From an uncultured Clostridia bacterium (GTDB lineage: Bacteria; Bacillota; Clostridia; Christensenellales; UBA1242), in assembly GCA_905235475.1 (NCBI GenBank), contig CAJOLU010000005.1, positions 72,892-136,891 on the forward strand: a stretch of DNA of 64,000 nucleotides, in the 5' to 3' direction. The notes under the pieces were generated by a model. The model searched no databases. It was not told the DNA's origin and saw nothing but the letters and a program-made list of their open reading frames with translations. The position numbers and the translations under genes were made by a program. The number at the start of each line of letters is the position of its first letter. Positions within the stretch are counted from its first letter, which is position 1. Shown piece by piece: positions 2,139-19,303 of this stretch.

Positions 2139-2149
2139 AGGAGAAAACT

Positions 2150-2794
2150 ATGAACACACCCAATAAATTGTCACTTCTTAGAATTATTATTGTGCCATTT
2201 ATGATGTTTTTCTATTTAGCAACATTTATTGACCCTTGGGGTAAAATTGTGGCTGTTGCATTATTTATTATTGCCGCTCTAACAGATATGCTTGATGGCA
2301 AAATTGCAAGAAAAACCGGTCAAATAACAGATTTGGGAAAACTGTTGGATCCAATTGCTGATAGACTTTTATATAATATGGGTTTTTTGCTCATTGTTAT
2401 TGATGAAACAATTCCACACCCATATGGAGTGATTTGTTTTGCAATACTTTTGTTTAGAGATTTTATAATAGACGGAATAAGACAAGTTGCTGCAAGCAAA
2501 AATGTTGTTGTTCAAGCCTTTTGGTCAGGAAAGATAAAAGCAATATTGCACGACACACATATTCCAATGTTTATGTTCTATGCTGCAACAAGCACTTTTG
2601 AAGGTGCTTTTTGGAATGTGTTTAACCCAATTTTATTCTGGGTTGCTGTTGCTATTTTGGTTGCTGCTATGATTGTTACAATTTGGTCAATATTTGACTA
2701 TACTTTAAGAACCAAAAGTGTTATTTTTGGAGGCAGCAAAAAACAAGATAAAAAAGAAGAAAAAAACAGTAAAGTAGAAAAAGATGAAAAGTAA
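2150..2794 (+). CDS. pgsA: CDP-diacylglycerol--glycerol-3-phosphate 3-phosphatidyltransferase
   Basis: CDP-alcohol phosphatidyltransferase motif DMLDGKIARKTGQITDLGKLLDPIADR in a multi-TM protein. SD AAAGGAG lies upstream, and the pgsA-cinA-recA synteny is present. Confidence 0.9.
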   Translation: MNTPNKLSLLRIIIVPFMMFFYLATFIDPWGKIVAVALFIIAALTDMLDGKIARKTGQITDLGKLLDPIADRLLYNMGFLLIVIDETIPHPYGVICFAILLFRDFIIDGIRQVAASKNVVVQAFWSGKIKAILHDTHIPMFMFYAATSTFEGAFWNVFNPILFWVAVAILVAAMIVTIWSIFDYTLRTKSVIFGGSKKQDKKEEKNSKVEKDEK

Positions 2795-3857
2795 TATTAT
2801 TGCCTTGAAAACACAAGAAACAGAGCAAGATTTTAGCACCTTGATTGAACCACAAATTGTTTCTTTATTCGCAAGAGTTGGAGTTGAAGTAACCAAAACG
2901 ATAACTTTTGTTGATGCTAATGAAATGGAAAAAAGTTTGTTTTATTTGTTGGAACCGTGTTCCATTGTTTTTGTTGATTTCAAAAATCCTAATTTTGAAT
3001 TAATTTTAAAAGAAATTAACAAGTTTTATGCAGTAAATCAAAAAGATTTTAATGCTGGAAAATATTGGCACGACCAAGTGAATAACAGGTTTTGCATTTT
3101 ATTCAATATTGAAAATATAAACTTCGTTAATAACATTGATGAAAAGTTTTTGAAATCACTTTTTGCACCAACAAAATATTTAAGTGTTATAAAAACATAT
3201 GGAATTAGTGACACAGAAATTAGAAAAGCACTAAAACATATTCCAAACCCAAACAATTTTGAGTATTATGTTACATCAACATTTTTAGATTGTGAAATAG
3301 ATATTTTGGCTGACGCAGATTTCTATAAAAGTGAAGCACTTGATTCATATATAAGAGAAATATATCAAATTTTGGAAAAATATATTTATAGTGATGAACC
3401 AGCAACACTTTATGAGAAATTGGAACAACTTTTGGAGATTAGAAATATGAAATTAAGTTTTTGTGACTTTTTCACTGGTGGGCAATTTCAATATTTGCTA
3501 AAGAATAATTTAAAATCATATAGCAAAAATATTTCAGATTTCGTTGAAATATTTCAACATGAGGAATTAACCACAAAACTTGGTTTCTCGCAAGAATTGC
3601 TAGAAAAAACGAAGAATTTATATGAAGAATTAATTTATGAAACAGCAGTTGTGATGTTAAATAAGAAAAATTGTGATGCAGCAGTTGTTTTGTTTAAAGA
3701 TGGTGATAAATACTATATTGCCATAGGTGATGATGAGGCAATACATTTATACAAATTTACCTTTGACCAGTCCAAAAGTTTTATCACAAACATAATCATT
3801 CAAACAACAATTTTCAAATTATTGAAAAAACTTAAGAAAAATAGTGGACTTTTTTAA
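2784..3857 (+). CDS. Divergent CinA-like protein (hypothetical)
   Basis: Sits in the cinA slot between pgsA and recA. The N-terminus MKSNIIALKTQ...IVSLFARVGVEV resembles the CinA N-terminal pattern, but the rest is not recognisable by eye. Confidence 0.4.
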   Translation: MKSNIIALKTQETEQDFSTLIEPQIVSLFARVGVEVTKTITFVDANEMEKSLFYLLEPCSIVFVDFKNPNFELILKEINKFYAVNQKDFNAGKYWHDQVNNRFCILFNIENINFVNNIDEKFLKSLFAPTKYLSVIKTYGISDTEIRKALKHIPNPNNFEYYVTSTFLDCEIDILADADFYKSEALDSYIREIYQILEKYIYSDEPATLYEKLEQLLEIRNMKLSFCDFFTGGQFQYLLKNNLKSYSKNISDFVEIFQHEELTTKLGFSQELLEKTKNLYEELIYETAVVMLNKKNCDAAVVLFKDGDKYYIAIGDDEAIHLYKFTFDQSKSFITNIIIQTTIFKLLKKLKKNSGLF

Positions 3858-3906: not shown

Positions 3907-4908
3907 ATGAATGAAACAGATAGAGCAAAAGTGTTGGAGCAAACAATTGCTCAAATAGAAAAACAATTTGGTAAAGGTTCTATTATGAGGCTTGGAGATA
4001 CTGTTAAGGAAAATATTGATGTGTTTTCAACAGGTTGTTTGCCGCTAGACTTAGCACTAGGGATTGGTGGTGTTCCAAGAGGAAGGATTGTTGAGATTTA
4101 TGGTCCAGAAAGTTCTGGTAAAACAACAGTTGCTCTTCATATTTGTGCAGAAGCACAAAAACAAGGTTGTGTGGCAGCATTTATTGACGCAGAACATGCG
4201 TTGGATCCTATTTATGCTCAAAACCTTGGGGTAAAAATTGATGAATTGTTTATTTCTCAACCAGACAACGGAGAACAGGCTCTCGACATTGTTGAAAGTT
4301 TGGTTCGTAGTGGTGGAGTTGATTTGATTATTGTTGACTCTGTTGCTGCTTTAACACCAAAAGCAGAAATTGATGGCGAAATGGGAGATTCTCATGTTGG
4401 CCTTCTTGCAAGACTTATGAGCCAAGCAATGAGAAAGTTAACAGCCATTATCAATAAATCAAACACTTGTGTTGTGTTCATTAACCAATTGCGTGAAAAA
4501 GTTGGTGTGATGTTTGGTAACCCAGAAACAACAACGGGTGGAAAAGCATTAAAGTTCTATTCAAGTGTTAGATTAGATGTTAGAAAAAGTGACACAATTA
4601 AAGATGGAGCAGATGCTATTGGTAGCAGAACAAAAGTTAAAGTTGTTAAAAATAAACTTGCCCCACCATTTAAAACTGCTGAGTTTGACATTATTTATGG
4701 AAAAGGTATTTCAAAAGAGGGCTGTATTCTAGATATTGCAATTGAAAATGATATTGTTCAAAAGAGTGGTGCTTGGTTTGCTTATAATGGAGAAAAAATT
4801 GGACAAGGAAAAGAAAACGCAAAGCAATATTTGGTTGATAATCCTCAAATTTGCGAAGAGATTGAAGCAAAAATACGCGAAATTGTTAAAAATAAGCCTG
4901 TTTTATAA
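3907..4908 (+). CDS. recA: Recombinase RecA
   Basis: Typical RecA sequence throughout: GPESSGKTT Walker [10 protein letters not shown] and [22 protein letters not shown]. Confidence 0.98.
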
Positions 4909-4915
4909 TAAATTG

Positions 4916-4955
4916 GACCTAATAGGAAAATATAACTATTGGGTCTTTTATTTTC
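4916..4955 (+). terminator. Rho-independent terminator after recA
   Basis: 10-bp stem GACCTAATAG / CTATTGGGTC (one G.U pair) followed by TTTTATTTT. Confidence 0.55.
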
Positions 4956-5054
4956 AAATAACGCTTGACTTATGAAAATTTTTAAATTAAAATAATAATG
5001 TATAAAATGAACTTTAAGATTTTTATATATATTTTATAAAGGAGATAGCAGAAT

Positions 5055-6647
5055 ATGAACTCAACAAGTGTTATGATGCTTGGTGTTAGTTCAGTTACCT
5101 TTGTTCTATCTGTTGTTGCGGCTTTAATTTTGGGGGCAGTTGCCACTTTTTTCGTTGTTAAATTAATTAGAAAAAAGAAAGCAGAGAAAGCAAAGCAAGA
5201 GGCTAAATTAATAATTGAAAATGCTGAACAAGATGCTAAAAATATTATTAAAGAAGCAAAACTGACAGCACAAGAAAAAGCATTAGATATAAAAACAGAA
5301 GTTGAAAATGAATTAAATTTACGCAGAGTTGAACTTGAAAAACTTAACGATAGATATCTAAAACGTGAAGAATTCATTAACAACAAAGAAGAAATATTAG
5401 AAAAGAAAACAGAAAATATTGAAACACAAAAGCAAGAACTTGATGCAATGGCTGATAACCTTAAAAAGCAGTTTGAGGGGCTTGAGGTTGAAAAGGGAAA
5501 AATATTAGCTGAACTTGAAAGAGTTTCAAAACTTAGTAGAGATGAAGCAAAAACAATTCTTATGAATAAGATGGAAGATGAAGCAAGGCACGATGCATTA
5601 ATTACCTTAAAAAACATTGAGCAAGAAACAAAAGATAATGCAAACAAAAAAGCAACAGAAATTGTTGCACTTGCAATTCAAAAATACTCTGCCGACATCA
5701 CAAGTGAAAACACTGCAACAACAGTTCTTCTTCCAAACGAAGAAATGAAAGGTCGTTTGATTGGAAGGGAAGGAAGAAACATCAAAGCAATAGAACAAGC
5801 AACTGGTGTTGACCTTATTATTGATGACACACCAGAGGCAATTGTTCTCTCAAGTTTTGACCCAGTGAGAAGAGAGATTGCAAAAATTTCCATTGAAAAA
5901 CTTATGCAAGATGGAAGAATCCACCCAGCAAGAATTGAAGAAACTGTTGCAAAAGTAACAAAAGAAATTGAGCAAGAAATGAAAGATGCTGGTGAGCAGG
6001 CTGTTATAGAGGCTGGAGTTCAAAACATTCATCCTGAACTTGTTAAACTTTTGGGAAGAATGAAATATAGAACCAGTTATGGTCAAAATATGTTAAAACA
6101 CAGTTTGGAAGTATCTTTTATGGCTAGAATGATGGCAGAAGAGTTGGGCGTTGATGCAGAAATTGCAAAAAGAGGGGGTCTTCTCCACGATATTGGAAAA
6201 GCAATAGACCACGAGGTTGAGGGAACCCATGTTTCAATTGGTGTTGATCTTGCCAAAAAATATAAAGAAAATAGCAAGGTTATTAACTGTATTGAAGCAC
6301 ATCATGGAGATGTTGAATTTTCTTGCATTGAAGCAGTTCTTGTTCAAGCAGCCGATGTTATTTCTTCAAGCCGTTATGGCGCAAGACGTGAAACAATGGA
6401 AAGTTACATCAAGCGTGTTGAAAAACTTGAAGAAATCTCTAACTCATTTGATGGTGTTGAAAAGGCATATGCTATTCAAGCAGGAAGAGAAGTTAGAATT
6501 ATTGTAAAGCCAGAAGAAATAGATGATGCAAAAGCAATGTTCTTGGCAAAAGATATCGCTAAAAAGATTGAAAGCGAAATGGAATATCCTGGACAAATTA
6601 AAGTTCATGTTATTCGTGAAACAAGAAATGTTGAATATGCAAAATAA
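5055..6647 (+). CDS. rny: Ribonuclease Y
   Basis: N-terminal TM segment, coiled coil, KH domain ([15 protein letters not shown]) and HD domain (LLHDIGKA...HH). Position downstream of recA matches Bacillus. Confidence 0.95.
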
Positions 6648-6833: not shown

Positions 6834-7547
6834 ATGTTAATGAAAAAAGATAAACAACTTAAATTGACTAAGGAAGATTTTGAAAAATTGATGAAATATG
6901 TGGAAACACACGGCAAAGATGAAAAATTTGATGCTATTCAGCAAATTATAGCAAAAAGAGGAAATGTTGCACAAATTTATAAATTTGCTAAAATAGAAGG
7001 AGCAGATATTGAGGTTCTTTCCCAAGCGATGGCAGAAGAAGCATGTCAACAACTTAGGTATATTAATCATAAACTTATTAAGTCAAACCACCGTTTCTCA
7101 AGATATAACTCGAACGACTTATACAGTACGGTAGGTAACATATATAGGCTTATCTACCGATTTGCTAAAGATATAGAAGGAGCAGATATTGAGGTTCTTT
7201 CTCAAGCGGTTGCAAAAACAAAAGTACCCGATTTTATCTTCGAAGTTGCTAAAATAGAAGGAGCAGATATTGAGGTTCTTTCCCAAGCGATGGCAGAAAC
7301 AAAACATGCACGTCTTATCGAAGAATTTGCTAAAGACATACAAGGGGCAGACATTGCTGTTCTTACCGAGGGGATGGCAAAAACAAAGAATCCTGAGCTT
7401 ATTCTCAGTTTTGCTAGAGAGATAAAAGGAGCCGACATAGCAGTCCTTACCAAGGCGATGGCAAAAACAAAGAATCCTGTGCTTATTCTCAGTTTTGCTA
7501 GAGAGATAAAAGGAGCCGACATGGCAGTCCTTACCAATTCGACTTAA
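6834..7547 (+). CDS. 28-aa tandem-repeat protein, 5' portion of a gene interrupted by an insertion
   Basis: SD AGGGGTGA precedes the start. There are six units of the motif FA(K/R)xIxGADIxVLxxAMAKTKNPxLIxx. The sixth unit is cut at 7537, and the ORF then ends after 3 foreign codons (NST*). Confidence 0.75.
   Translation: MLMKKDKQLKLTKEDFEKLMKYVETHGKDEKFDAIQQIIAKRGNVAQIYKFAKIEGADIEVLSQAMAEEACQQLRYINHKLIKSNHRFSRYNSNDLYSTVGNIYRLIYRFAKDIEGADIEVLSQAVAKTKVPDFIFEVAKIEGADIEVLSQAMAETKHARLIEEFAKDIQGADIAVLTEGMAKTKNPELILSFAREIKGADIAVLTKAMAKTKNPVLILSFAREIKGADMAVLTNST
6984..7537 (+). repeat. Coding tandem repeat, 81-84-bp units R1-R6
   Basis: Units start at 6984, 7161, 7245, 7326, 7410 and 7494. R5 and R6 are almost identical. 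R1 carries a divergent ~41-codon spacer. Confidence 0.9.
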
Positions 7548-7652
7548 AGATTTTGTATGGTTTAATATACTATATATTGTGTTTTAAAATTTATATTTTA
7601 CAATATGTTGTGTGCGTTTTGTGAAATATAATTTTTTTTATTCATTATTTTT

Positions 7653-7748
7653 CAAATTTTGTACTTTTTTTCACACCAAATTTTGTACTTTTTTTGTACT
7701 TTCTATCGGCAAATTAGATTTTTCTATTTTCAAATTTTGTACTTTTTT
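7653..7748 (+). repeat. Three direct copies of CAAATTTTGTACTTTTTT in the left arm of the island
   Basis: Copies lie at 7653-7670, 7677-7694 and 7731-7748, with an extra GTACTTT at 7696-7702. Confidence 0.85.
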
Positions 7749-7846
7749 GTGTTTGCATTATTTTTTGGCAAATATTTTTAAAAACAATTTAAAGACAAAA
7801 ATTTTAACTTATGATATAATTATGGTGATAGAAAAGTGAGGTAATT

Positions 7847-8317
7847 ATGAAATACTTTGTGTCTTCAGATATTCACGGATTTTTTGATGAGTGGATGCTT
7901 GCTTTGAAAAATAGTAATTTTGATATAAACAATCCAGAACATAAAATTATTGTTTGTGGTGATTTGTTTGATAGGGGCAGGCAACCAAAACAAATTATAG
8001 ATTTCATTTTATCTCATAGAGATAAAATAACAGTCATTCGTGGTAACCACGAAGATTTGATGCAAGCAATGATTGATAGAAATAAAAATAATTCAATGGA
8101 TCTGTCTAATGGAACAGCGCAAACAATTGTGGATTTATGTCCAGAGTGGTTAATTAGCAAGTTTGATTTAACAGAGATAGCAAAAGAAACAGGACTTCAA
8201 GAGGTGCTAGATTTATGTGTTGATTATTTTGAAACTAACAAAGTAAAAGATTTAACGATTTTGGGTTGGATTATTTTTAATTTGAAAATTTTTAAATATA
8301 AAAAATTAAAGTTCTGA
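7847..8317 (+). CDS. Metallophosphoesterase (PPP-type Ser/Thr phosphatase-like), probably C-terminally truncated
   Basis: Motifs DIHG, GDLFDRG and GNHE are present. Similarity stops after DYFETNK, where the expected H-containing C-terminal motifs are replaced by a short unrelated tail. Confidence 0.55.
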   Translation: MKYFVSSDIHGFFDEWMLALKNSNFDINNPEHKIIVCGDLFDRGRQPKQIIDFILSHRDKITVIRGNHEDLMQAMIDRNKNNSMDLSNGTAQTIVDLCPEWLISKFDLTEIAKETGLQEVLDLCVDYFETNKVKDLTILGWIIFNLKIFKYKKLKF

Positions 8318-8360
8318 AAAATGAAAAATAATCTTATAACTTTATTTTTTGCAAAAATGC

Positions 8361-8389
8361 TTGACTTTCTTATTCTTCTTGTATATATT
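8361..8389 (+). promoter_or_regulatory. Putative sigma-A promoter of the island operon (TTGACT-17-TATATT)
   Basis: -35 at 8361-8366 and -10 at 8384-8389. The first ATG (8397) lies about 8 nt after the -10 with no SD, so the transcript may be leaderless. Confidence 0.45.
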
Positions 8390-8396
8390 AAAATCA

Positions 8397-9647
8397 ATGA
8401 AAGATTTGATAAAAGTTCTTTTGGTTAGTCCACCCTACAAAGAAAAACAATTACATAAACAAGTTGCTGATTGGGATTTTATAAATGGAGTAAAATATAT
8501 GAATCCTGGTCTTTTAATTACTGCTTCTATACTGGATCAAAACAATATTGAAAATAAAATTATAAAAGTTGACCGCTTGGAGGATATGAGTTGTATTGAT
8601 AAAGAACTTGATTTTTATGGCGATCTTTTGGTTGGCGTTAGTTGTACGTCAGCATGGGAATATCTTGAAGCACTTAGTATATTAGATTATGTGAAAGATA
8701 AGAGAAAAGATGTAACAACATATATTGCAGGTTGGCAAATAAAAAGTATTGGCACAAAGGTTTTTGATGACAGTAAGGCTGTTGATTTTGCTATTTTATC
8801 TGACGCTGAAACAACAACAATGAATTTACTTAATAATTTCAAAAATCTAAATTATCATGATATTGGGATTGTTTCAAGACAAAATAGAGTTATAAAAAAT
8901 GGTAAAACTGATTTTAATTTTCAGGTTATTGATTTTTCAAAATATCCAAATTACAACGATTATATTCCTTTTGTTGAGGATAGCAGAAATTGTCCATATA
9001 GGTGTAATTTTTGTCTTAATTCAGTTGTAAAGGAACGTTATAGAAATGTTCCGCTCGATGTAATAAAAAAGAATATAGAAAATATTGAAAAATTGTATGG
9101 ACCAGAAACTGAAGTAAATTTTTTATCAGCAAATTTTGGAGTGAATGCTCAAAGAACTTTGGAACTTTTAGATTACTTAAATGAGAAAAGGCTAAAGTGG
9201 AATTTTGAGTTTCATGTAGACAATCCTTGGGAAAAATATATAGACAAAATAAAGCTTGCAAATTTAAAAAAATGTAGTATAGGGTTTGAATCAGCAAACA
9301 TATCAACTCTTCAAGCGATGAATAAAACAAGAAATCCAGAAAATTATTTAAAGCGTTTTGATTTGTTAATAAACAAGTTAAACGAAATGGGGATTAAACC
9401 TAGCATAAATGTTTTATACTATCCGTCAGACACGGAGCAATCCATAAAAGATACAAACGACTTTTTAAAAAAGTATGAAGGGAAGTATAGAAAAATAAGA
9501 AAGAATTTTACTATTGGATTTGAAGGGGTTTTAAAAAATTTTGATGGATATAAAACTGAAGAAAATGACTATTTTAAAAAAATTCATGCAAAACCAATTT
9601 GTCCAAAAGGTATGAGTATGAAAGAAACTTTGGATTTGTGTAAATAA
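8397..9647 (+). CDS. Radical SAM enzyme with an N-terminal B12-binding-like domain
   Basis: CxxxCxxC cluster motif CPYRCNFC and an N-terminal IKVLLVSPPY Rossmann-like start typical of class B radical SAM proteins. Start moved to the ATG at 8397, because the TTG at 8349 lies inside the promoter. Confidence 0.75.
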   Translation: MKDLIKVLLVSPPYKEKQLHKQVADWDFINGVKYMNPGLLITASILDQNNIENKIIKVDRLEDMSCIDKELDFYGDLLVGVSCTSAWEYLEALSILDYVKDKRKDVTTYIAGWQIKSIGTKVFDDSKAVDFAILSDAETTTMNLLNNFKNLNYHDIGIVSRQNRVIKNGKTDFNFQVIDFSKYPNYNDYIPFVEDSRNCPYRCNFCLNSVVKERYRNVPLDVIKKNIENIEKLYGPETEVNFLSANFGVNAQRTLELLDYLNEKRLKWNFEFHVDNPWEKYIDKIKLANLKKCSIGFESANISTLQAMNKTRNPENYLKRFDLLINKLNEMGIKPSINVLYYPSDTEQSIKDTNDFLKKYEGKYRKIRKNFTIGFEGVLKNFDGYKTEENDYFKKIHAKPICPKGMSMKETLDLCK

Positions 9648-9671
9648 AAAATTTGTATGAGGATGTAAAAA

Positions 9672-10379
9672 ATGAAATTATCAAAAAAAAACAATTTCAG
9701 CTTTAAAAAAAGATTAAAAAGATTTTTTATAAGGTACAGGGGAAAATATTATGCACAAAATGGTGAAGATATAGTGGTTTGGCAATATTTAAAAAATATA
9801 AAAAACATCCGTGATGTAACATATCTAGATATTGGGTGTGGAGATTGTAAATTTCTTAGCAATACATATTTGTTATATACAATGGGTGCAAGTGGATATG
9901 TCTGTGATGCAAATCAAAATTATGAGAAAAAATATAAAAGGTTAAGACCTAGAGATAAATTTTTGAATTATCTTATAACAAACTCATTAAATCAAAACAA
10001 AAAATTTTTTATAACGGATATGAGAGAACTTAGCACTTGTGATGAAACAAAAATCAAATATTTAACAGAAAATGGATTTAAAATTAAAAGTGAAAAAAAT
10101 GTTCCAACAAAAACACTTAATGAAGTTTGGGGTGAAGTCACAAAGGAAAAAGAAATAGATTTTTTATCATTAGATATTGAATCAGATGAAATCAATCTTT
10201 TGGAAAATCTTGATATGACAAATCATAAACCGATAGTGATTTGTGTTGAAGTTGTTGATTTTGAAACAGGAGAAAACTCATCAAAGACAGAATCGTTTAT
10301 TGAATATATGAAAAAGAAAAATTTCAAAGTTCTTTTGAACACAAAAGTAAATATAATTTTTGTTAGAGAGGGGGGATAA
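9672..10379 (+). CDS. FkbM-family SAM-dependent methyltransferase
   Basis: YAQNGEDIVVWQYL and the glycine-rich LDIGCGDCKF SAM motif, with a size typical of Methyltransf_21 proteins. Confidence 0.6.
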   Translation: MKLSKKNNFSFKKRLKRFFIRYRGKYYAQNGEDIVVWQYLKNIKNIRDVTYLDIGCGDCKFLSNTYLLYTMGASGYVCDANQNYEKKYKRLRPRDKFLNYLITNSLNQNKKFFITDMRELSTCDETKIKYLTENGFKIKSEKNVPTKTLNEVWGEVTKEKEIDFLSLDIESDEINLLENLDMTNHKPIVICVEVVDFETGENSSKTESFIEYMKKKNFKVLLNTKVNIIFVREGG

Positions 10380-10381
10380 AA

Positions 10382-11977
10382 ATGAAAAAAAATTATTTAA
10401 TTATTGGATGTGGACAAATAGGAAAATCTGTTTTAAGTAAAGTTCTAAATAGAGATGATGTTGGAAAGATAATTATTCATAATTTAACAAGTGAGGAAAA
10501 TAAAACCATACAAAAAGTATGTAAAGATGAAAATATTATTTATAGTTATGGAAATATATTTTTCCCAACAAAATATTGTCAAAAAGAAGATTTTAACAAT
10601 GAAGAACTTGAGCAACTCATAAAATATTTTTATGAAGAAAGCGATGAAAATGTAATAAAACAATCAAAACTTTATGAGCTTGTTGAAAAATATAATCCAG
10701 AGGTGATTGTTGATACTATAAATACGGCAACAATTTTTGGAAATAATTTTAAACCTGAAAATACTTTTAAACTATATTTAGAAGATAGTAAAAGGTGTTG
10801 TAAAGAGTTGATGATGGGTGAGTTTGTTACAAAATTTGAAAAATTTATTTCCACTTTAAAGTATTGTATTGAAAATATGGGTGTAAAAAAATATATAAAA
10901 GTTTCAACAACTGGTTTAGGGGGAATGGGTCTTAATATGCCGTATACTCATGGCGACAACCCTAAATCCACATTATCAAATGCTTTAATAGGAAAGATTT
11001 CTGCAAGTGGAACATTTCACCAACTTTTGTGGAATTTATCTCACATACCGAATTTTGATATTGCACTAATTATACCAGCAACTTTTGTGGGTTATGATTT
11101 CTTTGAAAATGGTTTTGTGGAAACGAATATAGGGAATGTATTAGAACAATCAAAATACAATGATTATGACCTAAATAAAACAAAAAAACTATTGTTTAGT
11201 GAAAAAACTGATGAAAAATATATAAAATTTCCAGTAGTAAGAGCGGGAGAAAATCATGTTTATTCAATTAATGAATTAAAAGTTTTGACATCAATTGGCC
11301 AAATGGAGGCGATAACAAAAGAGGAAGTGTCAAATGCTGTCCTGAAAGAGATTGATGGGAAATCAACTTCAAATATTTTGCTTGCACTTGATAAATATGC
11401 GTTAGCTCCAACATATGCTGGAAGAAAAATGATTGAAGAAATACTTGAAAAAAATAAACACACTCCACAAACATATGGAGTTGCAACAGGAAATTTGGGT
11501 GTAAGTTGTGCAAAGCATCTTTATGAACTTTGGTTTGTTAAAAGAATTTACCCAACATTAGAAGATATTTTTAATAAGCAAATTTCTGATGAAAACATCA
11601 ATGTGGCAATCAATAAAATTCTTTTGAGTGACAAAGAAATTATAAAAGAAATTATATCATTAGGAATGCCAGTATTGTATGGAGATAATCAAATAATTTT
11701 AGGTTCATATAGCTTGGTTCCAGAAACTATAAACAATGAAGAATTAACATTATCTGAAATAGAGAATTTTAGTAAAATCGGTTGGGTTGACTTAAGGGCA
11801 AATTCAATCAAAAGTTGGAAGAAAGATATATGTGAAACTATGAAATATTTGCAAGACAAAAAATATTATTTTGATAATTTTGATATTTATTATAACAAAT
11901 TGGTGTTAAATGATTATGATATAGCGGAAATTTTGGGACTTATATATAATAACAAAAATAAACATAGAATAAAATAA
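10382..11977 (+). CDS. NAD(P)-binding Rossmann-fold protein of unknown function
   Basis: N-terminal YLIIGCGQIGKSV dinucleotide-binding motif. The remaining ~480 aa are not recognisable. A strong SD (GAGGGGGGA) lies 2 nt after the preceding stop. Confidence 0.5.
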   Translation: MKKNYLIIGCGQIGKSVLSKVLNRDDVGKIIIHNLTSEENKTIQKVCKDENIIYSYGNIFFPTKYCQKEDFNNEELEQLIKYFYEESDENVIKQSKLYELVEKYNPEVIVDTINTATIFGNNFKPENTFKLYLEDSKRCCKELMMGEFVTKFEKFISTLKYCIENMGVKKYIKVSTTGLGGMGLNMPYTHGDNPKSTLSNALIGKISASGTFHQLLWNLSHIPNFDIALIIPATFVGYDFFENGFVETNIGNVLEQSKYNDYDLNKTKKLLFSEKTDEKYIKFPVVRAGENHVYSINELKVLTSIGQMEAITKEEVSNAVLKEIDGKSTSNILLALDKYALAPTYAGRKMIEEILEKNKHTPQTYGVATGNLGVSCAKHLYELWFVKRIYPTLEDIFNKQISDENINVAINKILLSDKEIIKEIISLGMPVLYGDNQIILGSYSLVPETINNEELTLSEIENFSKIGWVDLRANSIKSWKKDICETMKYLQDKKYYFDNFDIYYNKLVLNDYDIAEILGLIYNNKNKHRIK

Positions 11978-11990
11978 AAGGAACAAAAAA

Positions 11991-13094
11991 ATGAAAAAAT
12001 TACCAGTATATGTTACGGGAGATAGGCCAACAGGAAAATTGCATCTTGGTCATCTTGTCGGGAGTTTGAGAAAAAGAGTTGAAATGCAAAACTCAGGAAA
12101 GTACGATTGTTATGTCTTTATCGCAGACATGCAAGCACTAACAGACAATGCGAAAAATCCAGAAAAAATACGAAAAAATGTGCTTGAAGTTGCTTTGGAT
12201 TATTTGTCGGTTGGAGTTGATCCTAAAAAAAGTACAATATTTTTACAATCACAAGTGCCACAACTTTGTGAACTTACATTTATATATTTAAATTTGGTAA
12301 CAGTTTCAAGGTTGGAGCGTAATCCGACAGTAAAAAATGAAATAAAAGAAAAAGGTTTTAAAACAAACATACCAGCAGGATTTTTGGTTTATCCAGTAAG
12401 TCAAGCAGCAGATACAACAGCATTTTTAGCGAATTATATTCCAACAGGGGAAGATCAACTTCCTGTCACTGAGCAAGGTAGAGAAATTGTTCGAACTTTT
12501 AATAGTATTTATGGTGATGTCCTAGTTGAAGCTGAAGGTGTTTTGGCAGACTCTGATAAATGCTATAGACTTCCAGGGATTGATGGAAAAGGGAAGATGA
12601 GCAAATCGCTTGGTAATGCTATATATCTTTCTGATGATACTGAAACAGTGAGGAAAAAAGTTTTTGACATGTATACAGATCCAGAGCATATAACAGTTGA
12701 TATGCCTGGTCATGTAAAAGGCAATATTGTATTTACATATTTGGATGCTTTTGCTACGCCAGAGTCCTTTAAAAAGTTTTTGCCTAACGATAATTATACA
12801 TGTTTAGATGATATGAAAAAGCATTATGAGAAGGGCGGGCTTGGTGATGTTAAAATAAAGAAATTTCTTTTTGATATAATTGAGGATATTTTGCAACCAA
12901 TTAGAGAAAAAAGAAGATATTATGAACAAAATATTGATGAAGTAATTCAAATTTTAAAAGATGGTAGTGAACAGGCAAGAATAGTTGCATCTCAAACTGT
13001 TAAAAAAGTAAGAAAGGCAATGGGGATTGAATATTTTGAAGATGATGCCCTGATTGAATATTATAAAAATAAATTTCACGAAAATGGAGAGTAA
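11991..13094 (+). CDS. trpS: Tryptophan--tRNA ligase (class Ic)
   Basis: HIGH motif GKLHLGH, FIADMQALTDN, GEDQ and KMSKS (GKMSKSLGNAI). No T-box leader; the gene is embedded in the operon. Confidence 0.85.
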   Translation: MKKLPVYVTGDRPTGKLHLGHLVGSLRKRVEMQNSGKYDCYVFIADMQALTDNAKNPEKIRKNVLEVALDYLSVGVDPKKSTIFLQSQVPQLCELTFIYLNLVTVSRLERNPTVKNEIKEKGFKTNIPAGFLVYPVSQAADTTAFLANYIPTGEDQLPVTEQGREIVRTFNSIYGDVLVEAEGVLADSDKCYRLPGIDGKGKMSKSLGNAIYLSDDTETVRKKVFDMYTDPEHITVDMPGHVKGNIVFTYLDAFATPESFKKFLPNDNYTCLDDMKKHYEKGGLGDVKIKKFLFDIIEDILQPIREKRRYYEQNIDEVIQILKDGSEQARIVASQTVKKVRKAMGIEYFEDDALIEYYKNKFHENGE

Positions 13095-13096
13095 TC

Positions 13097-14815
13097 ATGA
13101 GAATTTATGGAAATGGTGGATTTGGGAAAAAGGCTGAAATGTTATATTTGCTGAAGAAAACTTTTCCACATCTTGCTGATTTTATTCCTAAATCGTATAT
13201 TATAGATTCAAGTGTTTTTGATCAAATAATGGCAAAAAACAACAAAGATGAAATAAAAACTTGTGAGGATATTCAAATTGATGATGAACTTTTAAATAAA
13301 GTTTATGGTGAAGTTATTAGTTATTTTAAAGATGCGCCATTAGTTTTTAGAAGTTCAGCATTTATAGAAGATACAGTTTTATTTAGTGCTTCCGGTCAAT
13401 ATAAAACTTGTGTTAACATAAAAAATAAAAATGAAGCAAAACTTGCATTACAGAAAATTTATTTTTCAATGCTTAACCGAAATGCGAAAATTTACGAGGA
13501 CTCATTTAATCTTGCTTCAGGAATAAATAAAATGTCTATTTTGGTTCAGGAGCTTATGATTGTTGATATGGCTGGAGTTTTGTTTTCTGTTAATCCAATA
13601 AATGGTGAGCATGAAACAATAATTGAATACGAAAAAGGAAATGGTGTGAATATTGTTGCTGGTTCAGCACCAGCGGTGGAAAGAATTGTTATAAAAAATG
13701 ATAATATATCAAAATCTTTGCCGGATTTTAAAAAGCTTTATGAAATATCAAAAGAGATAAAAGATTTTTTAGGATATGAAATTGATTTTGAATGGGGAAT
13801 AAAAGATGGAAAAATATATATTTTTCAGGTAAGGCCTTGCAAAATCTCTCTAAAAAAGACTGAATTTACTGATTATGAATGTGATGAAATTATTCCATGT
13901 GAAGTGTTTTCTCGAGGATATGCTATTGGCAAGATTAATTCCAGGGATAAGCTTGAGGACTACAATATTATAGGGGATATTAGAAAATTTGAAGCAGATA
14001 ATATTGAATTAATTCAAAAATCTTCTGGCTTGATTGTGAATGTGGGTGGATATTTATCTCATATCGCAAATATCTGTAGAGAGTTTGAAAAAGTTTTTGT
14101 CCGATGTGAAAAAGAATTTAAACAAGGTGAAATTGTTTTTATAGATGGTTTTAAAGGTCAAATTATGCCTTTAAAAAGCATAAAGAAAAACTTTGCGAAA
14201 GTTTTTTGGGATACTTTTTTATATCAAGCTAGGCAAATAAATAGTTTATCCATAAAATCAAACGGCATAATTTCAGCAAATTATGAACATGTTTGGGAAA
14301 TTGTATTTTTTGATTTTGATGAAGAAAAACTAATTTCGAAGCTGAAGGAGAAGGGTTTTTGCTGTAAGGAGCAAGTTAAAAAATATCAAACGTATGATTA
14401 TGAGAATAAAGATTTAATAAAAGAAAACATGGAATTTCGAATATCGCAAACAAATGAAGAAACCGTAATACAGCTTAAATCATTTAATACCTCAGAAACA
14501 ACAAATTTTAGATTTGACAGAAGTATGAAGCTCTATTTTCAGAACGAAAAATATGCAAAAAAATATATGAAAAATTTAGGTGTTATACAAACCGGAACCT
14601 TTGAAAGACATGAGAAACTTTTTCAAAGTCCGACAAATGACGTCCTGGTTAAATTCTTGAAATGGTCTGGTAAAAATGTTTATATTGGAATTGAATCAAA
14701 TAATATTTCAAATATACAGCATTTTATGAGTGAGTTTGGGTTAAGTGTTGACAACTCAGACAATATTGGTGGTGTTGAAATATTTAAAAAATTAAATATA
14801 AATTTTGTGGAGTGA
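13097..14815 (+). CDS. PEP-synthase/PPDK-like phosphotransferase (ATP-grasp plus phosphohistidine swivel) fused to a CYTH-like C-terminal domain
   Basis: PPDK_N-like GGFGKKAEMLYLL and FRSSAFIEDT..FSASGQYKT. The swivel-domain motif is GGYLSHIANICREF. The C-terminal ~200 aa show an alternating charged beta-strand pattern (EIVFFDFDE ... NVYIGIESN) reminiscent of CYTH. Confidence 0.6.
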   Translation: MRIYGNGGFGKKAEMLYLLKKTFPHLADFIPKSYIIDSSVFDQIMAKNNKDEIKTCEDIQIDDELLNKVYGEVISYFKDAPLVFRSSAFIEDTVLFSASGQYKTCVNIKNKNEAKLALQKIYFSMLNRNAKIYEDSFNLASGINKMSILVQELMIVDMAGVLFSVNPINGEHETIIEYEKGNGVNIVAGSAPAVERIVIKNDNISKSLPDFKKLYEISKEIKDFLGYEIDFEWGIKDGKIYIFQVRPCKISLKKTEFTDYECDEIIPCEVFSRGYAIGKINSRDKLEDYNIIGDIRKFEADNIELIQKSSGLIVNVGGYLSHIANICREFEKVFVRCEKEFKQGEIVFIDGFKGQIMPLKSIKKNFAKVFWDTFLYQARQINSLSIKSNGIISANYEHVWEIVFFDFDEEKLISKLKEKGFCCKEQVKKYQTYDYENKDLIKENMEFRISQTNEETVIQLKSFNTSETTNFRFDRSMKLYFQNEKYAKKYMKNLGVIQTGTFERHEKLFQSPTNDVLVKFLKWSGKNVYIGIESNNISNIQHFMSEFGLSVDNSDNIGGVEIFKKLNINFVE

Positions 14816-14821
14816 TAATTT

Positions 14822-15574
14822 ATGAAAAGAAAAGTTGTTATTTTAACAGATTGTATTGATGTTGCCTTTAACGAGATAAGGGGGGCAATATTTCAAAATG
14901 CATCAAATGATGAATTTGAAATTGAGCCAGTAGTAAAGGTTGATTCTTACAATATAGAAAATGTAAATTTTTTAGTTAAGTTGGTGGCAGAAATTTACCC
15001 AGAAGGAACTGTGATCTGCGTTATTGTGAATCCCTTAAAAATTAGAACAGAGAGAATAGTTGGAAGAACAAAAAAGAAAAATTTAATTTTTGAGGGAACA
15101 AACACTGGAGCATTTGATTGGCTCATCAAGGATTTTGGATGTAGTGAACTTTATGAGCTTTTTGATCCTGGATTTGTTCCTTTTGGTGGAAAATATGTCC
15201 ATGCGCCAGCTGTTGGAAAACTATTAAGTGGGAAAAAGTTAAGTGAACTTGGGAATATTTTTCCACTTGAAAAAGTAAGAAAGGTTGATATGGAAGAAAG
15301 CTGTATTTTGCATATTGACAACTTTGGAAACTTAAAGCTAAATCATAAATTAAAAGAGCATAATGAAGGTGACTTTTTAGAGGTGTTCATAAATAACAAA
15401 AAAATGACAATGAAATATGCTAAAAGAATGATGGCACTTGATGATGGTGAAATAATAATTTATCCAGGAAGTTCGTTTGGACTTACTGAAATTGGTATTG
15501 TTCGCGGAAATTTTGCTGAAACATTTGGCGTACAATATGGAGACAAGATAAAAATTAAGGAGTCTATTAAATGA
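14822..15574 (+). CDS. SAM hydroxide adenosyltransferase family protein (DUF62; fluorinase/chlorinase-like)
   Basis: N-terminal VVILTDCIDVAFNEIRG and C-terminal HIDNFGNLKLN match the family pattern LxTDFG...xxDxFGNxxTN. Confidence 0.6.
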   Translation: MKRKVVILTDCIDVAFNEIRGAIFQNASNDEFEIEPVVKVDSYNIENVNFLVKLVAEIYPEGTVICVIVNPLKIRTERIVGRTKKKNLIFEGTNTGAFDWLIKDFGCSELYELFDPGFVPFGGKYVHAPAVGKLLSGKKLSELGNIFPLEKVRKVDMEESCILHIDNFGNLKLNHKLKEHNEGDFLEVFINNKKMTMKYAKRMMALDDGEIIIYPGSSFGLTEIGIVRGNFAETFGVQYGDKIKIKESIK

Positions 15575-16530
15575 AGGATGTTATGATTACTGGAGCGAGA
15601 CCAACTGGTGCTTTGCATTGGGGACATTATATTAGTGTTTTTAAGAATTTATCTAAGCTACAAAATGATTTCAATACATTTTTTGTGGTTTCAGATGTTC
15701 ATTTTTTAACCACTAAAACAACACCTGATCAAATAAAAATGATAAAACCAAATACAATAAAAATGATTCTTGACTTAATTGCTATTGGGATGGATCCTAT
15801 CAATACAACTTTTTATCTTCAATCAAAAGCCCCATCTCATGGTAATATTTATTATCTGATACAAAATTTTATAGATTCACAAATGCTTTATAATCCGAGC
15901 ATTATTGAAATGGAAAAACATTCAAAAACAAAACCATCTTTAGGACTTTTGGCTTATTCAGTTCTTGAAAGTGCTGATATTTTGGGGATTGGAGCAAAAA
16001 AGGTTCCTGTTGGATTTGATAATATAGAGCATGTAAATATAACAAATAAAATTATTGACAAAATAAATACTACTTTTGGTTCGGACATTCAAAAACCAGA
16101 AGCGATAATATCTGCTGAGACAACAAAACTTATTGGAACGGATGGTTATGAAAAAATGAGTAAAAGTTTGGGTAATTCCATAAATATCGGTGATTCAAGG
16201 GAAATACTTGTTAAAAAGATAAGAGAAATGAAATGGAATGATGATGAAAATCATAATGCTCTTTTGCAATATACAAAACTTTTTGATTTAAATAAATATC
16301 AGATATTTAGAGAAAAAGGTAGAGATGCAACAAAAGAAATAAAAGATTTTTTAATTGAAAATTTTTCAAAAGAAAATTATAAGTTTGAAAATCGTGTTGC
16401 ACCGTATAAAGAAGATGAGAATTTAATAATTGAACTTTTGAAAAAGGGAAGCGAAATTGCTGAACAGAGATATTTAAAAATGTTTCAGAATTTGAAAAAT
16501 ATATTAGGAATGTGGGATTTAACTAAATAA
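15571..16530 (+). CDS. Divergent TrpRS-like class I aminoacyl-tRNA ligase paralogue
   Basis: GARPTGALHWGHY (HIGH changed to HWGH), VSDVHFLT, GFDN in place of GEDQ, and an intact KMSKS. It overlaps the preceding gene by 4 nt (ATGA). Confidence 0.7.
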   Translation: MKDVMITGARPTGALHWGHYISVFKNLSKLQNDFNTFFVVSDVHFLTTKTTPDQIKMIKPNTIKMILDLIAIGMDPINTTFYLQSKAPSHGNIYYLIQNFIDSQMLYNPSIIEMEKHSKTKPSLGLLAYSVLESADILGIGAKKVPVGFDNIEHVNITNKIIDKINTTFGSDIQKPEAIISAETTKLIGTDGYEKMSKSLGNSINIGDSREILVKKIREMKWNDDENHNALLQYTKLFDLNKYQIFREKGRDATKEIKDFLIENFSKENYKFENRVAPYKEDENLIIELLKKGSEIAEQRYLKMFQNLKNILGMWDLTK

Positions 16531-16593
16531 AAATGAGTAAAAACAAGAGGTATTAAATTATTTTTAAGTTTTGTCATTTTATGGTGAAAATGA

Positions 16594-17118
16594 ATAAAAG
16601 ATAATTATGAACTCATCAATGTTGCTGTAACTAGAGCAAAAACAAAATTGGTTATTGCTGCAGATTGTGAATGCGTTGATAAACTCTCAGATAAGAAAGA
16701 TAATTTATATAATTTGGTTCAATATACAAAAAATAATGGTAATATTGTCGTTTCAGCGAATGAATCAATTAAGATTGAGATAGGTAAGTCAAACGGAAGT
16801 GCTTATGAAGATGAATTTTTTAAAACAGTTTCTCATTTCTGTTCTTGCCATAAAACTTTTGAAGCAGAACGAAATGTTAAGATTTCAAAACTATTTAAAA
16901 ATGAAAATATAAATAGCAATATGGAATTCGATTTAGTCATATATGAAAAAGTTTTATTTAGAAAAAAACCAGTAATAGTTTTTGAAATTTATGGCTGAGA
17001 ATATTTTGGAACTTTGCCTAGAGAAATGTCTGATAGAAGGAAGATGGGGATATGTAAAAACAATGGAGTGAAACTTATTTTTTCCCAAACAATTTTGTTA
17101 AGGCGTATGAATATATAG
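16594..17118 (+). pseudogene. Remnant of an SF1 helicase C-terminus plus an endonuclease-like (DUF559/Vsr-like) domain
   Basis: Begins mid-gene with helicase motif VI ELINVAVTRAKTKLVIA and has no N-terminal helicase core. An in-frame TGA at 16996 (FEIYG*EYFG) breaks the C-terminal domain. Confidence 0.6.
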
Positions 17119-17193
17119 CAGATATAATTCTATCATCTAAAGATAAGAACAAAAGTATTCAGCAATCAATGTTTGATGATGAAATAATATAAA

Positions 17194-17223
17194 AAATCAC
17201 CCATAAAATAGGGTGATTTTTTG
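17194..17223 (+). terminator. Rho-independent terminator at the right end of the island
   Basis: Stem ATCACCC / GGGTGAT followed by TTTTTT. Confidence 0.7.
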
Positions 17224-17229
17224 TTCATT

Positions 17230-17274
17230 TGGAGCTACTGATGGGAATCGGACCCATGACCCCCACCTTACCAA
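17230..17274 (-). other. 3' half of a tRNA-Thr(GGT), from anticodon loop to CCA (att-site remnant)
   Basis: The reverse complement reads TTGGTAA GGTGG GGGTC ATGGG TCCGATT CCCAT CAGTAGC T CCA: anticodon loop, 3' stem, variable loop, T arm, acceptor strand and CCA. No D arm or 5' acceptor strand follows. Confidence 0.7.
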
Positions 17275-17452
17275 GGCGATGGCAAAAACAAAGAATAAAG
17301 ATTGTCTAAATGAGATAAAATTTATTAATGACAATTATTTAAAAAATGAATTGCCAGCAGATGTTGATGATATAATAGCAACTGCAAAAGTTCGAAAGGT
17401 AGCATCAAAAGAAGCGCAACAATCAACGAAAAATCCAACACTAAAAAGATAA
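17266..17452 (+). pseudogene. 3' portion of the interrupted repeat-protein gene
   Basis: Encodes LTKAMAKTKN, completing repeat R6, followed by a unique 50-aa tail. Nt 17266-17296 are 31/31 identical to 7445-7475. The track ORF 17213-17452 is a read-through from the tRNA fragment. Confidence 0.75.
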
Positions 17453-17513
17453 TGAATTAAATGTGATTTTGCGAAAATAATAACTAATTTTTATTTTTAT
17501 CATATATAATTTT

Positions 17514-18332
17514 ATGTTAAAAATTTGTGACGCACATAATGATTTGTTATATAAATATAAAACAAAACAAAATATTCAAAAGTATATAAATAAATTGCCA
17601 CAAAACATAGAAAAAATATTTTGTGCCTACTTTTCATATAACAACAGCAGTGCTAGTGTTTTTGATATGAAGAAAAAGTTTTCATATCTTTTGAGTGAAA
17701 AGTGTGTTAGAACAATTGAAAATGCTTGGTTCATTAATAAAGAAAATTTTATGAGCATTATAGAAAATGATGTGTTTTGCGCAACCCTTTGTCACAACAA
17801 AAATAATGCTTTATGTGGTGGGGCAGAAGATAATGGAGAAATAACTCAACTTGGCAATTTTATAATTCAAAAATTAGAAAAGAATAATGTTATAGTTGAC
17901 ACAGCGCATATGAACGAGAAATCTTTTTGGCAATTTGTTCATTTAACTCAAAAGCCAATATTTAATTCTCATAGCGGTTTTTATTCAATTTTTTCACATA
18001 ATAGAAACTTAAAAACAAGTCAAATAAACGAAATTGTGAGTAGCGGTGGTTATATTGGATTGGCAATGTATCCAAAGTTTTTTACAAATAATTCATATGG
18101 AATTGGTGACATTGCTAAAAATATAATATGGTTTTGGGAAAACTTTGGAACAAACACTCTTGGGTTTGGAACAGATTTTAATGGAATTAACAACTATCCC
18201 ACTAATTTGCATAACTATTTTGATTTATTGACGCTTGCACAAAAATTAATTGAATTTGGTGCAAATAGGGAAGACATTAATAAACTCTTTAGCGAGAATT
18301 TACTGGAATTTTATAAAAAAATAAAAGCCTAG
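17514..18332 (+). CDS. Membrane dipeptidase (peptidase M19 family)
   Basis: N-terminal CDAHNDL metal-binding motif, then DTAHM, FNSHS and FGTDFNG. Confidence 0.7.
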   Translation: MLKICDAHNDLLYKYKTKQNIQKYINKLPQNIEKIFCAYFSYNNSSASVFDMKKKFSYLLSEKCVRTIENAWFINKENFMSIIENDVFCATLCHNKNNALCGGAEDNGEITQLGNFIIQKLEKNNVIVDTAHMNEKSFWQFVHLTQKPIFNSHSGFYSIFSHNRNLKTSQINEIVSSGGYIGLAMYPKFFTNNSYGIGDIAKNIIWFWENFGTNTLGFGTDFNGINNYPTNLHNYFDLLTLAQKLIEFGANREDINKLFSENLLEFYKKIKA

Positions 18333-19123: not shown

Positions 19124-19152
19124 TTGACTATTTTTTAAAATTTTTATATAAT
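19124..19152 (+). promoter_or_regulatory. Sigma-A promoter for tRNA-Trp (TTGACT-17-TATAAT)
   Basis: -35 at 19124-19129 and -10 at 19147-19152, about 10 nt upstream of the tRNA 5' end. Confidence 0.65.
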
Positions 19153-19162
19153 AGAAGAATAT

Positions 19163-19236
19163 AGGGGAGTGGCTTAACGGTAGAGTAGTGGTCTCCAAAA
19201 CCATTGGTCAGAGTTCGATTCTCTGCTCCCCTGCCA
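19163..19236 (+). tRNA. tRNA-Trp (anticodon CCA)
   Basis: Cloverleaf readable by eye: acceptor AGGGGAG/CTCCCCT, anticodon loop CTCCAAA, T arm AGAGTTCGATTCTCT, and an encoded CCA. Confidence 0.9.
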
Positions 19237-19265: not shown

Positions 19266-19303
19266 GAGGTATTTTTGATTTTTGCAAAAATGCCTCTTTT
19301 TTT
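19266..19303 (+). terminator. Second, stronger terminator after tRNA-Trp
   Basis: 11-bp stem GAGGTATTTTT / AAAAATGCCTC (one mismatch) followed by TTTTTTT. Confidence 0.6.

Follow-up and report, generated by a model that had tools for sequence, protein, structure and literature searches.

Two tryptophanyl-tRNA synthetase genes, one ordinary and one probably recruited for biosynthesis, in an indolmycin-related gene island of an uncultured Clostridia bacterium

We analyzed a 64,000-nucleotide stretch of contig CAJOLU010000005.1 from an uncultured Clostridia bacterium (assembly GCA_905235475.1), here called the window, which encodes two tryptophanyl-tRNA synthetase (TrpRS)-type proteins in a single operon. 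Judged by its residues, the first, TrpRS-A (A), is a fully canonical, ordinary TrpRS predicted to charge tRNA-Trp. The second, TrpRS-B (B), keeps an intact catalytic core, and its sequence indicates that it no longer reads the anticodon or discriminator of tRNA-Trp and is probably a biosynthetic enzyme. We lean modestly toward the reading that the surrounding cluster makes a tryptophan (Trp)-derived antimetabolite directed against TrpRS, with A supplying or protecting translation and B activating Trp, or an analogue of it, for an acceptor other than tRNA. The two genes are as follows:

11991-13094, + strand: TrpRS-A, 367 amino acids (aa), a complete clostridial / TrpRS-II-type tryptophan-tRNA ligase
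15571-16530, + strand: TrpRS-B, 319 aa, a TrpRS paralogue with an intact catalytic core, whose start overlaps the stop of the preceding SAM_HAT gene by 4 nucleotides (nt)

An earlier note on this DNA had described two TrpRS open reading frames (ORFs) 2.5 kb apart, and both were recovered exactly as stated, with a spacing of 2,476 bp. Both match PF00579 (E 8e-53 for A and 4e-38 for B); measured against the curated equivalog cut-off of NCBIfam trpS TIGR00233 (176.75 bits), A passes with 224.5 bits, while B narrowly fails with 168.2 bits. The motif strings also read as the note gave them: HLGH (residues 18-21), GEDQ (153-156) and KMSKS in A, and HWGH (16-19), GFDN (148-151) and KMSKS (195-199) in B. 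The weight placed on them did not stand. The note had located the Trp-recognizing Asp in GEDQ; it is instead Asp132 (Geobacillus stearothermophilus numbering; reference sequence verified against PDB 1I6K), which lies in the specificity helix 'AADIL'. Asp132 and Met129 read the indole nitrogen of Trp (bioRxiv 10.64898/2026.03.23.713518), and this Asp is kept in both copies (D141 in A, D136 in B). Nor is the GxDN form in B aberrant, and both motif changes of B are minor. The crystallized, genuine TrpRS of C. trachomatis (6NCR) has GKDN at the GEDQ site, G(K/R/V/F)DN is the motif across the whole B clade, and HWGH is typical of, and limited to, the B sub-group of the window, other B proteins having HLGH. 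The C-terminus of B had been called shorter, but 319 aa is a normal length for a bacterial TrpRS (328 aa in G. stearothermophilus); A is the long copy, extended by an insertion and by a tail at its C-terminus. Repurposing is poorly indicated by oddities in HIGH and GEDQ, and the informative residues are those that read tRNA identity.

The catalytic core of B is invariant in a 42-sequence alignment (G8, R10-G13, H16, G18, H19, Y129, D136, G148, D150 and K195-S199). Both A and B have HIGH, KMSKS, the Asp of GxDx that binds ribose, and Asp132 and Tyr125, which are specific for Trp. Residue mapping thus found every catalytic residue in place in B, contrary to the possibility raised in the note that essential active-site residues are missing. 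The AlphaFold model of B has a pLDDT of 92.7, and its top Foldseek match is 6NCR (TM score 0.92 over 336 columns).

Marked differences between A and B lie in the residues that contact tRNA. In the E. coli TrpRS-tRNA(Trp) complex, the readers of C35 and A36 are Thr225, Asp226, Ser227 and Lys274, residues conserved in bacterial TrpRSs, and Glu155 reads discriminator G73; the B. subtilis substitutions E153K and E153G sharply cut charging (PMC12135181). All tRNA readers are kept in A (T229-D230 and E161), and Thr-Asp and Glu are likewise kept in all A-type proteins. In B, W222-N223 replace the anticodon-reading Thr-Asp and are followed by a deletion; all B-clade proteins have Trp for Thr, lack the conserved Asp and carry a deletion just after. 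The G73-reading Glu site is occupied by Asn156 in the window, by Asn in Melghiribacillus and by Lys, Met, Val or Leu in a group of cluster loci that includes L003, L034 and L104. The two proteins also diverge at different rates: across co-inherited clusters, A is 86% identical in its catalytic and 79% in its C-terminal domain, compared with 76% and 49% for B, and overall identities are 76-91% for A where they are 59-79% for B.

The Trp pocket of B is distinctive as well. A Glu at the Met129/Gln position (E133 in B) occurs in 100% of B proteins versus 0% of others. The B clade has Ser at the Val40/Ala position (S41 in the window), a residue gained independently in the cluster-borne A clade described below, and B has Asn at the indolmycin-contact Gln147 position. 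Close relatives of B are few (88% and 76% identity, then about 40%), and its wider clade (bootstrap 100) includes TrpRS-like genes in nonribosomal peptide synthetase/polyketide synthase clusters (L004 and L006) with the same anticodon-loop loss. These proteins may act as class I amino-acid:carrier-protein ligases or as donors of Trp; their genes (L004 10001-10987 and L006 4073-5059) adjoin carrier proteins, condensation domains and an aspartate decarboxylase. The earlier note had offered two options for B, an inhibitor-insensitive TrpRS or a ligase repurposed for a non-tRNA acceptor. We favor the latter, but not on the grounds given there, the HIGH and GEDQ changes: its support comes from the loss of tRNA readers, the fast-evolving C-terminal domain, the Glu129 pocket and the coupling to SAM_HAT and phosphohistidine enzymes. 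No TrpRS-derived biosynthetic paralogue was described in the literature searched, of which our coverage is incomplete.

The A protein, by comparison, looks ordinary. Its best solved relative is Deinococcus radiodurans TrpRS II (2A4M; E 2e-107, end to end), to which it is 54% identical in the multiple alignment; the match to the G. stearothermophilus type has E 1e-41. Thousands of relatives at 60-81% identity occur in Clostridia, Bacilli and other gut metagenome-assembled genomes (MAGs), and in Clostridium, Macrococcus and Ligilactobacillus. The closest, at 80-81%, come from MAGs of uncultured Clostridia and Christensenella; these genes stand alone and have no T-box, and we found no synteny between the window and their loci. 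In a neighbor-joining tree, A nests among stand-alone Clostridia TrpRSs (bootstrap 81-98). The note would have taken such a grouping with vertical Bacillota TrpRSs, combined with the absence of any other trpS from the genome, as refutation; of these two conditions, the first holds, A clustering with the stand-alone Bacillota enzymes. A departs from its seven closest stand-alone relatives at only two positions that are otherwise invariant, both of them outside the active site. At the position of His43, which contacts indolmycin in sensitive enzymes (bioRxiv 10.64898/2026.03.23.713518), A has Gln48, as do all stand-alone relatives; this Gln could make the A type intrinsically less sensitive to indolmycin.

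Neither copy lies behind a T-box, as the note had claimed. Profile scans detected none near A or B at gathering score, and none at E<=10 in a permissive scan of 7400-17600; a leader would have no room, because the gaps before A and B are 13 and -4 nt. The one T-box that the window does contain belongs to the leader of pheS (41939-42151, - strand), where the note had also placed one. A-type genes do lie behind a T-box in C. perfringens and M. hajekii (Macrococcus). The lack of one at A is not diagnostic, because its closest stand-alone relatives lack it too.

B belongs to a conserved cluster family. A triad of phosphohistidine enzyme, SAM_HAT protein and TrpRS-B recurs in >15 independent loci: the window, L003, L005 and L011-L015 from metagenomes, L009/L010 (Melghiribacillus thermohalophilus GCA_004342905.1), L034 (Lachnospiraceae bacterium 10-1) and nine further metagenome loci (named among them L104-L106, L108-L110, L121 and L122). 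Uncultured Clostridia and Bacilli of gut and rumen carry the family widely, and two named genomes have it as well; we found no description of it in the literature searched, which was covered incompletely. TrpRS-B follows SAM_HAT in 15 of 15 cases (SAM_HAT at >=57% identity with downstream sequence present), and its start usually overlaps the SAM_HAT stop. The commonest order is reductase, TrpRS-A, phosphohistidine enzyme, SAM_HAT, TrpRS-B and radical SAM; in the window, the radical-SAM and FkbM genes stand at the front and the order is otherwise the same. Lachnospiraceae, Bacillaceae and uncultured Bacilli/Clostridia share a conserved gene order, and the B orthologues showed neither frameshifts nor stop codons. 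The accessory genes differ in type at constant role: the reductase is of Ind2 or Ldh type, the C-methylase is radical-SAM or Methyltransf_2, and FkbM is usual. All seven of the cluster variants examined first encode a second TrpRS, initially hidden in two of them as an 'unknown' ORF (L011) and a contig-end fragment (L003), and one accompanies the triad at every locus for which sufficient sequence was available. The cluster-borne A genes of L034, L104, L105, L108, L110, L121 and L037 form a monophyletic clade (bootstrap 100).

Several loci carry features of their own. L037 4660-7380, from an uncultured Bacilli MAG, lacks the triad and has just two of the genes, for an Ind2-type reductase and an A-type TrpRS. 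In L108, two 100% identical A-type copies (2067-3107 and 4798-5838) flank the reductase; they may reflect recent tandem duplication or an assembly artefact, and we did not use them as a case of amplification. In M. thermohalophilus, insertion sequence elements flank the cluster, and a PqqD-like protein is encoded directly upstream of the phosphohistidine enzyme (L009 7267-7527). As a peptide-recognition element of pathways to peptides made by ribosomes and modified after translation (RiPPs), it raises the possibility of a peptide-bound intermediate.

The placement of both copies inside an operon, as the note had it, was right: seven same-strand genes span 8349-16530 with gaps of -4 to 24 nt. 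What it had missed is that this operon is an indolmycin-related cluster, a context that explains the presence of TrpRS genes. Besides A and B, the island contains:

7792-7820: promoter-like site upstream of the metallophosphoesterase ORF
7847-8317, + strand: truncated metallophosphoesterase, 156 aa, covering only profile positions 1-80 of 191; first island ORF
8349-9647, + strand: B12-binding-type radical S-adenosylmethionine (SAM) methyltransferase-like enzyme with CxxxCxxC; candidate C-methylase by analogy with CxnA
9672-10379, + strand: FkbM-family methyltransferase, by domain profile
10382-11977, + strand: Rossmann-fold reductase, 531 aa, PF27054 'Beta_methylindole_red_C', putative Ind2-type keto-acid reductase
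13097-14815, + strand: phosphoenolpyruvate (PEP)-synthase/PigC/Rph-like enzyme, 572 aa, with PPDK_N ATP-grasp, swivel domain with phospho-His (LSH, His322) and an unassigned 200-aa C-terminal domain
14822-15574, + strand: divergent SAM_HAT (DUF62) protein with changed triad, 52-70% identical across clusters
16648-16998, + strand: 116-aa ORF, for which profile searches found no family match; last island ORF
17191-17222: bidirectional terminator-like hairpin closing the operon

The best NCBIfam neighbors of the 572-aa phosphohistidine enzyme are PigC, PEP synthase and rifampin phosphotransferase, and its swivel His ('LSH...RE') is kept in all ten proteins compared. PPDK_N plus PEP-utilizers is an architecture that it presumably shares with Ind3. 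The PF27054 assignment of the reductase is a precomputed Pfam annotation, so that its identification goes by family name, not by sequence comparison with Ind2. An exhaustive search with the reductase returned a small family of 324 representatives, named only 'short-chain dehydrogenase' or 'hypothetical', and the literature searched gave no match to a name for it. In indolmycin biosynthesis, Ind1 C-methylates indolepyruvate and Ind2 then reduces the product to indolmycenic acid; Ind3 couples this acid in an ATP-dependent reaction, Ind7 N-methylates and ind0 is the TrpRS gene of the cluster (PMC8246080). For chuangxinmycin, the B12-radical-SAM methylase CxnA acts on the same carbon, and the cluster has an Ind0-like TrpRS resistance gene (PMC5925218). 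By analogy, the hallmarks of the operon suggest a pathway from Trp to an indolmycenic-acid-like acid, which would then be activated. For the Ind4/Ind5/Ind6 branch to dehydro-D-arginine, we found no pyridoxal-phosphate enzyme or imine reductase on the island, and we therefore do not file it as an ind cluster. With the related clusters of L003, L005, L011 and L118, full-length metallophosphoesterases and genes for NUDIX hydrolases, thymidylate-kinase-like and NTP_transf_5 proteins were observed, a hint of nucleotide or nucleoside chemistry.

The SAM_HAT protein coupled to B is itself unusual. Members of the cluster subfamily are 43-70% identical to the window protein, versus <=31% for ordinary DUF62 proteins. 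The Asp-Arg-His triad of DUF62 hydrolases activates water. Numbered as Asp68-Arg75-His127 in PH0463 and checked on the 1WU8 alignment, it has Asn for Asp and Gly for His in seven of seven aligned cluster proteins, all of which also read 'TNTG' for 'PDNG'. Because of these replacements, the cluster proteins are unlikely to be plain SAM hydrolases. Distant cluster-type members (43-51% identity) have other neighbors. In L113 (202-11043), a TrpRS and a LeuRS lie on the strand opposite SAM_HAT; in L118 (6218-10756), an Ldh, a phosphohistidine enzyme and a methyltransferase, and no TrpRS, lie beside it; and L114 (916-2888) encodes a neighboring 378-aa HisZ/HisRS-like protein at E about 1e-3 to 1e-4, a hint rather than a finding.

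The whole cluster, including both trpS genes, is an insertion. The note had proposed an inserted island, and exact 31-nt direct repeats and 9-nt junction repeats indeed bracket it. The insertion measures 9,737 bp (about 7538-17274) and splits a host gene:

6834-7547, + strand: 5' part of the host repeat-protein gene, with 81-84-nt tandem coding repeats; its frame stops 10 nt past the left junction
7529-7537: left junction, the 9-nt CCTTACCAA, repeated at 17266-17274
17266-17296: right junction, an exact copy of the upstream repeat unit 7445-7475, with CCTTACCAA as its first 9 nt
17213-17452: open frame with the 3' remnant of the host repeat-protein gene; the right repeat copy is in the same reading frame

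The 31-nt repeat thus brackets the operon at 7445-7475 and 17266-17296, and a perfect repeat unit is restored when the left flank is fused to what follows the right copy. We read the cluster as horizontally acquired, with both trpS genes as conserved components of it. TrpRS being essential and both copies lying on the insertion, the recipient must, we infer, have had its own trpS at the time of insertion. The split gene, for which no Pfam match was found, has repeat units such as FAKxIxGADIxVLxxAMAKTKN. Base composition was set aside in favor of the repeat brackets, as the GC dip lies mostly at codon positions 1 and 2; GC at third codon positions is 0.16-0.23 in cluster genes versus a background of 0.237 +/- 0.024. 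A tRNA-like 3' fragment (T-arm and acceptor-like; 17233-17289, - strand) inside the right island end scored 13.4 bits (E 2.8) and is not claimed. An M19 dipeptidase gene (17514-18332) follows the island, and L003 and L114 have genes for peptidase S51. Another 9 kb on, past an ABC transporter and a PadR regulator, there is a phage-type integrase (25579-26622), with no link to the island established.

The only tRNA gene in the window is a tRNA-Trp (CCA; 19163-19236, + strand), 2.6 kb downstream of B; a promoter-like site (19124-19152) and a terminator (19266-19296) of its own flank it. We considered it as an orthogonal partner of B and rejected it: A1-U72, G73 and CCA are all canonical, its position is outside the island, and the other clusters have no such gene.

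Taken as a pathway modeled on indolmycin and chuangxinmycin, the cluster would convert Trp via indolepyruvate and beta-methyl-indolepyruvate to an indolmycenic-acid-like hydroxy acid, which the Ind3-like phosphohistidine enzyme would activate. A would provide a protected or extra supply of Trp-tRNA, with self-resistance arising from a different (Gln at the His43 position) or a duplicated target. B would convert Trp or a Trp analogue to the adenylate and, acting with the SAM_HAT-like partner to which it is translationally coupled, pass it to an acceptor other than tRNA; in a less likely variant, it would take the acyl group from Trp-tRNA made by A. The partner, having lost the water-activating triad, may deliver or bind an adenosyl moiety. 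A more specific version of this scheme, which we put forward tentatively and regard as rather improbable, is that tRNA-blind B acylates a free adenosine-type acceptor, a stand-in for A76, with Trp or an indolmycenic-acid-like analogue. SAM_HAT would supply the acceptor using a nucleophile other than water, and the product would be a stable mimic of tryptophanyl-adenylate or an aminoacyl-adenosine. If true, B would be the first TrpRS-derived biosynthetic enzyme, acting alongside a new reaction of the DUF62 fold to make a new kind of aminoacyl-tRNA synthetase (aaRS) inhibitor in gut and soil Firmicutes.

Several observations weigh against the proposed roles. B is modeled with the full C-terminal domain fold, so that some RNA binding may persist, and the B sub-group of L005, L011 and L013 retains the G73-reading Glu. 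A lies outside the monophyletic cluster-borne A clade and, set against its stand-alone relatives, has no substitution specific to resistance; for these two reasons, its immunity role in the window is an assumption. The link to Ind2 and Ind3 derives from a Pfam family name and from domain architecture, and the chemistry must differ in a cluster without Ind4/5/6. The presence of TrpRS genes is, moreover, the sole pointer to TrpRS as the target.

Alternatively, B might be a drug-insensitive TrpRS, conferring Ind0-like self-resistance and still charging tRNA-Trp, with A as a second or housekeeping copy, an explanation that we consider unlikely. It would account for the full-length TrpRS fold and for every catalytic motif being present, and the pocket changes (Glu for Met/Gln129, Ser for Ala/Val40 and Asn for Gln147) could lower inhibitor affinity. 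Members of the wider clade are found in other biosynthetic clusters, as might be expected of a mobile resistance gene, and an Ind0-like TrpRS is common to the indolmycin and chuangxinmycin clusters (PMC5925218). A charging enzyme, however, is hard to reconcile with the replacement of the anticodon-reading Thr-Asp in every B protein, the loss of the G73-reading Glu in most, including that of the window, and a C-terminal domain far less constrained than that of A. The co-encoded canonical TrpRS would also be redundant if B were the resistant enzyme.

We likewise doubt that B is a transferase of the AcmF/SbzA type, which would not adenylate and would move the tryptophanyl group from Trp-tRNA made by A to a nucleoside-like acceptor. 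The two-aaRS precedent of AcmD and AcmF, and of SbzA (PMC12945691), the canonical TrpRS encoded alongside and an adjacent SAM_HAT-like protein that could provide an adenosine-type acceptor all fit such a role. Against it, the ATP motifs HxGH and KMSKS are invariant, which argues for retained ATP chemistry, and the G73 reader beside the CCA end is lost in the window B. A function of B as an immunity decoy that binds and sequesters the product (with ATP) and has no catalytic role would agree with conserved ligand-binding and lost tRNA-reading residues. We judge it very unlikely, given the strict translational coupling to SAM_HAT, the conserved order within a biosynthetic core, the invariant catalytic Lys residues of KMSKS and the cost of stoichiometric sequestration. 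That B is merely the decaying relic of a duplicated trpS pair amid unrelated neighbors, as its fast divergence and score below the TIGR00233 cut-off might suggest, is contradicted by intact ORFs in >15 loci of different lineages, invariant catalytic residues, a confident full-length fold and gene order conserved from Lachnospiraceae and Bacillaceae to uncultured Bacilli/Clostridia, and we give it almost no credence.

Activation of Trp or an analogue by B for a non-tRNA acceptor thus remains our preferred reading. Few pointers to an antibiotic of known target are as good as an aaRS gene within a cluster, and this cluster points to a TrpRS-directed metabolite and a new SAM_HAT/DUF62 activity. 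aaRS genes in clusters for aaRS inhibitors are already known; there is a real chance that the enzymology here is new. The pair offers a testable case of aaRS recruitment into secondary metabolism within class Ic, for which we found no other case in the literature searched.

Among known systems, the indolmycin (S. griseus ind0-ind7) and chuangxinmycin (cxn) clusters share with the window the logic of a Trp-derived pathway, with enzymes for C-methylation and keto-acid reduction (an Ind2-type Pfam domain in the window) and, presumably, for ATP-dependent coupling by a PEP-utilizing type of protein, together with a further methyltransferase and a TrpRS gene within the cluster; the B12-radical-SAM methylase is shared with cxn (cxnA). 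Unlike them, the window cluster lacks Ind4/5/6 and sulfur-carrier or P450 genes, has two TrpRS genes rather than one, adds a divergent SAM_HAT and a tRNA-blind TrpRS paralogue, and belongs to a type found in Firmicute hosts. A is close to the kind that comprises D. radiodurans TrpRS II and the auxiliary indolmycin-resistant TrpRS1 of Streptomyces and, like TrpRS II, has Gln at the His43 position; in contrast to these, the A type is widespread as a stand-alone gene in Clostridia (with a T-box in C. perfringens) and looks ordinary, not auxiliary. The SAM_HAT protein shares its two-domain fold family (PF01887, PF20257; 2ZBU, 1WU8, SalL 2Q6I) with SAM hydroxide adenosyltransferase, fluorinase and chlorinase, and is set apart from DUF62 hydrolases by Asn and Gly in the triad, 'TNTG' for 'PDNG' and a clear identity gap. 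Like GluQRS/YadB, MshC, EpmA, cyclodipeptide synthases and amino-acid:carrier-protein ligases, B keeps an aaRS core and has lost canonical tRNA identity reading; unlike these, it keeps the whole two-domain TrpRS fold (TM score 0.92 to 6NCR).

The closest analogy is ascamycin: its aminoacyl-nucleoside is built by AcmF, an AlaRS-like transferase, while AcmD is an AlaRS that is resistant; SbzA has a related role (PMC12945691). As in the ascamycin cluster and that of SB-203208, which encodes SbzA, a single cluster of the window combines a canonical and a divergent gene of the aaRS family, both of the same specificity. In those systems, one working resistant synthetase and one aaRS-like biosynthetic enzyme lead to an aminoacyl-nucleoside aaRS inhibitor. 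They differ from the window in using relatives of class II AlaRS and class Ia IleRS, in their Streptomyces hosts and in an aminoacyl-tRNA donor; the window pair, by contrast, is derived from class Ic TrpRS, and the ATP motifs are conserved in B.

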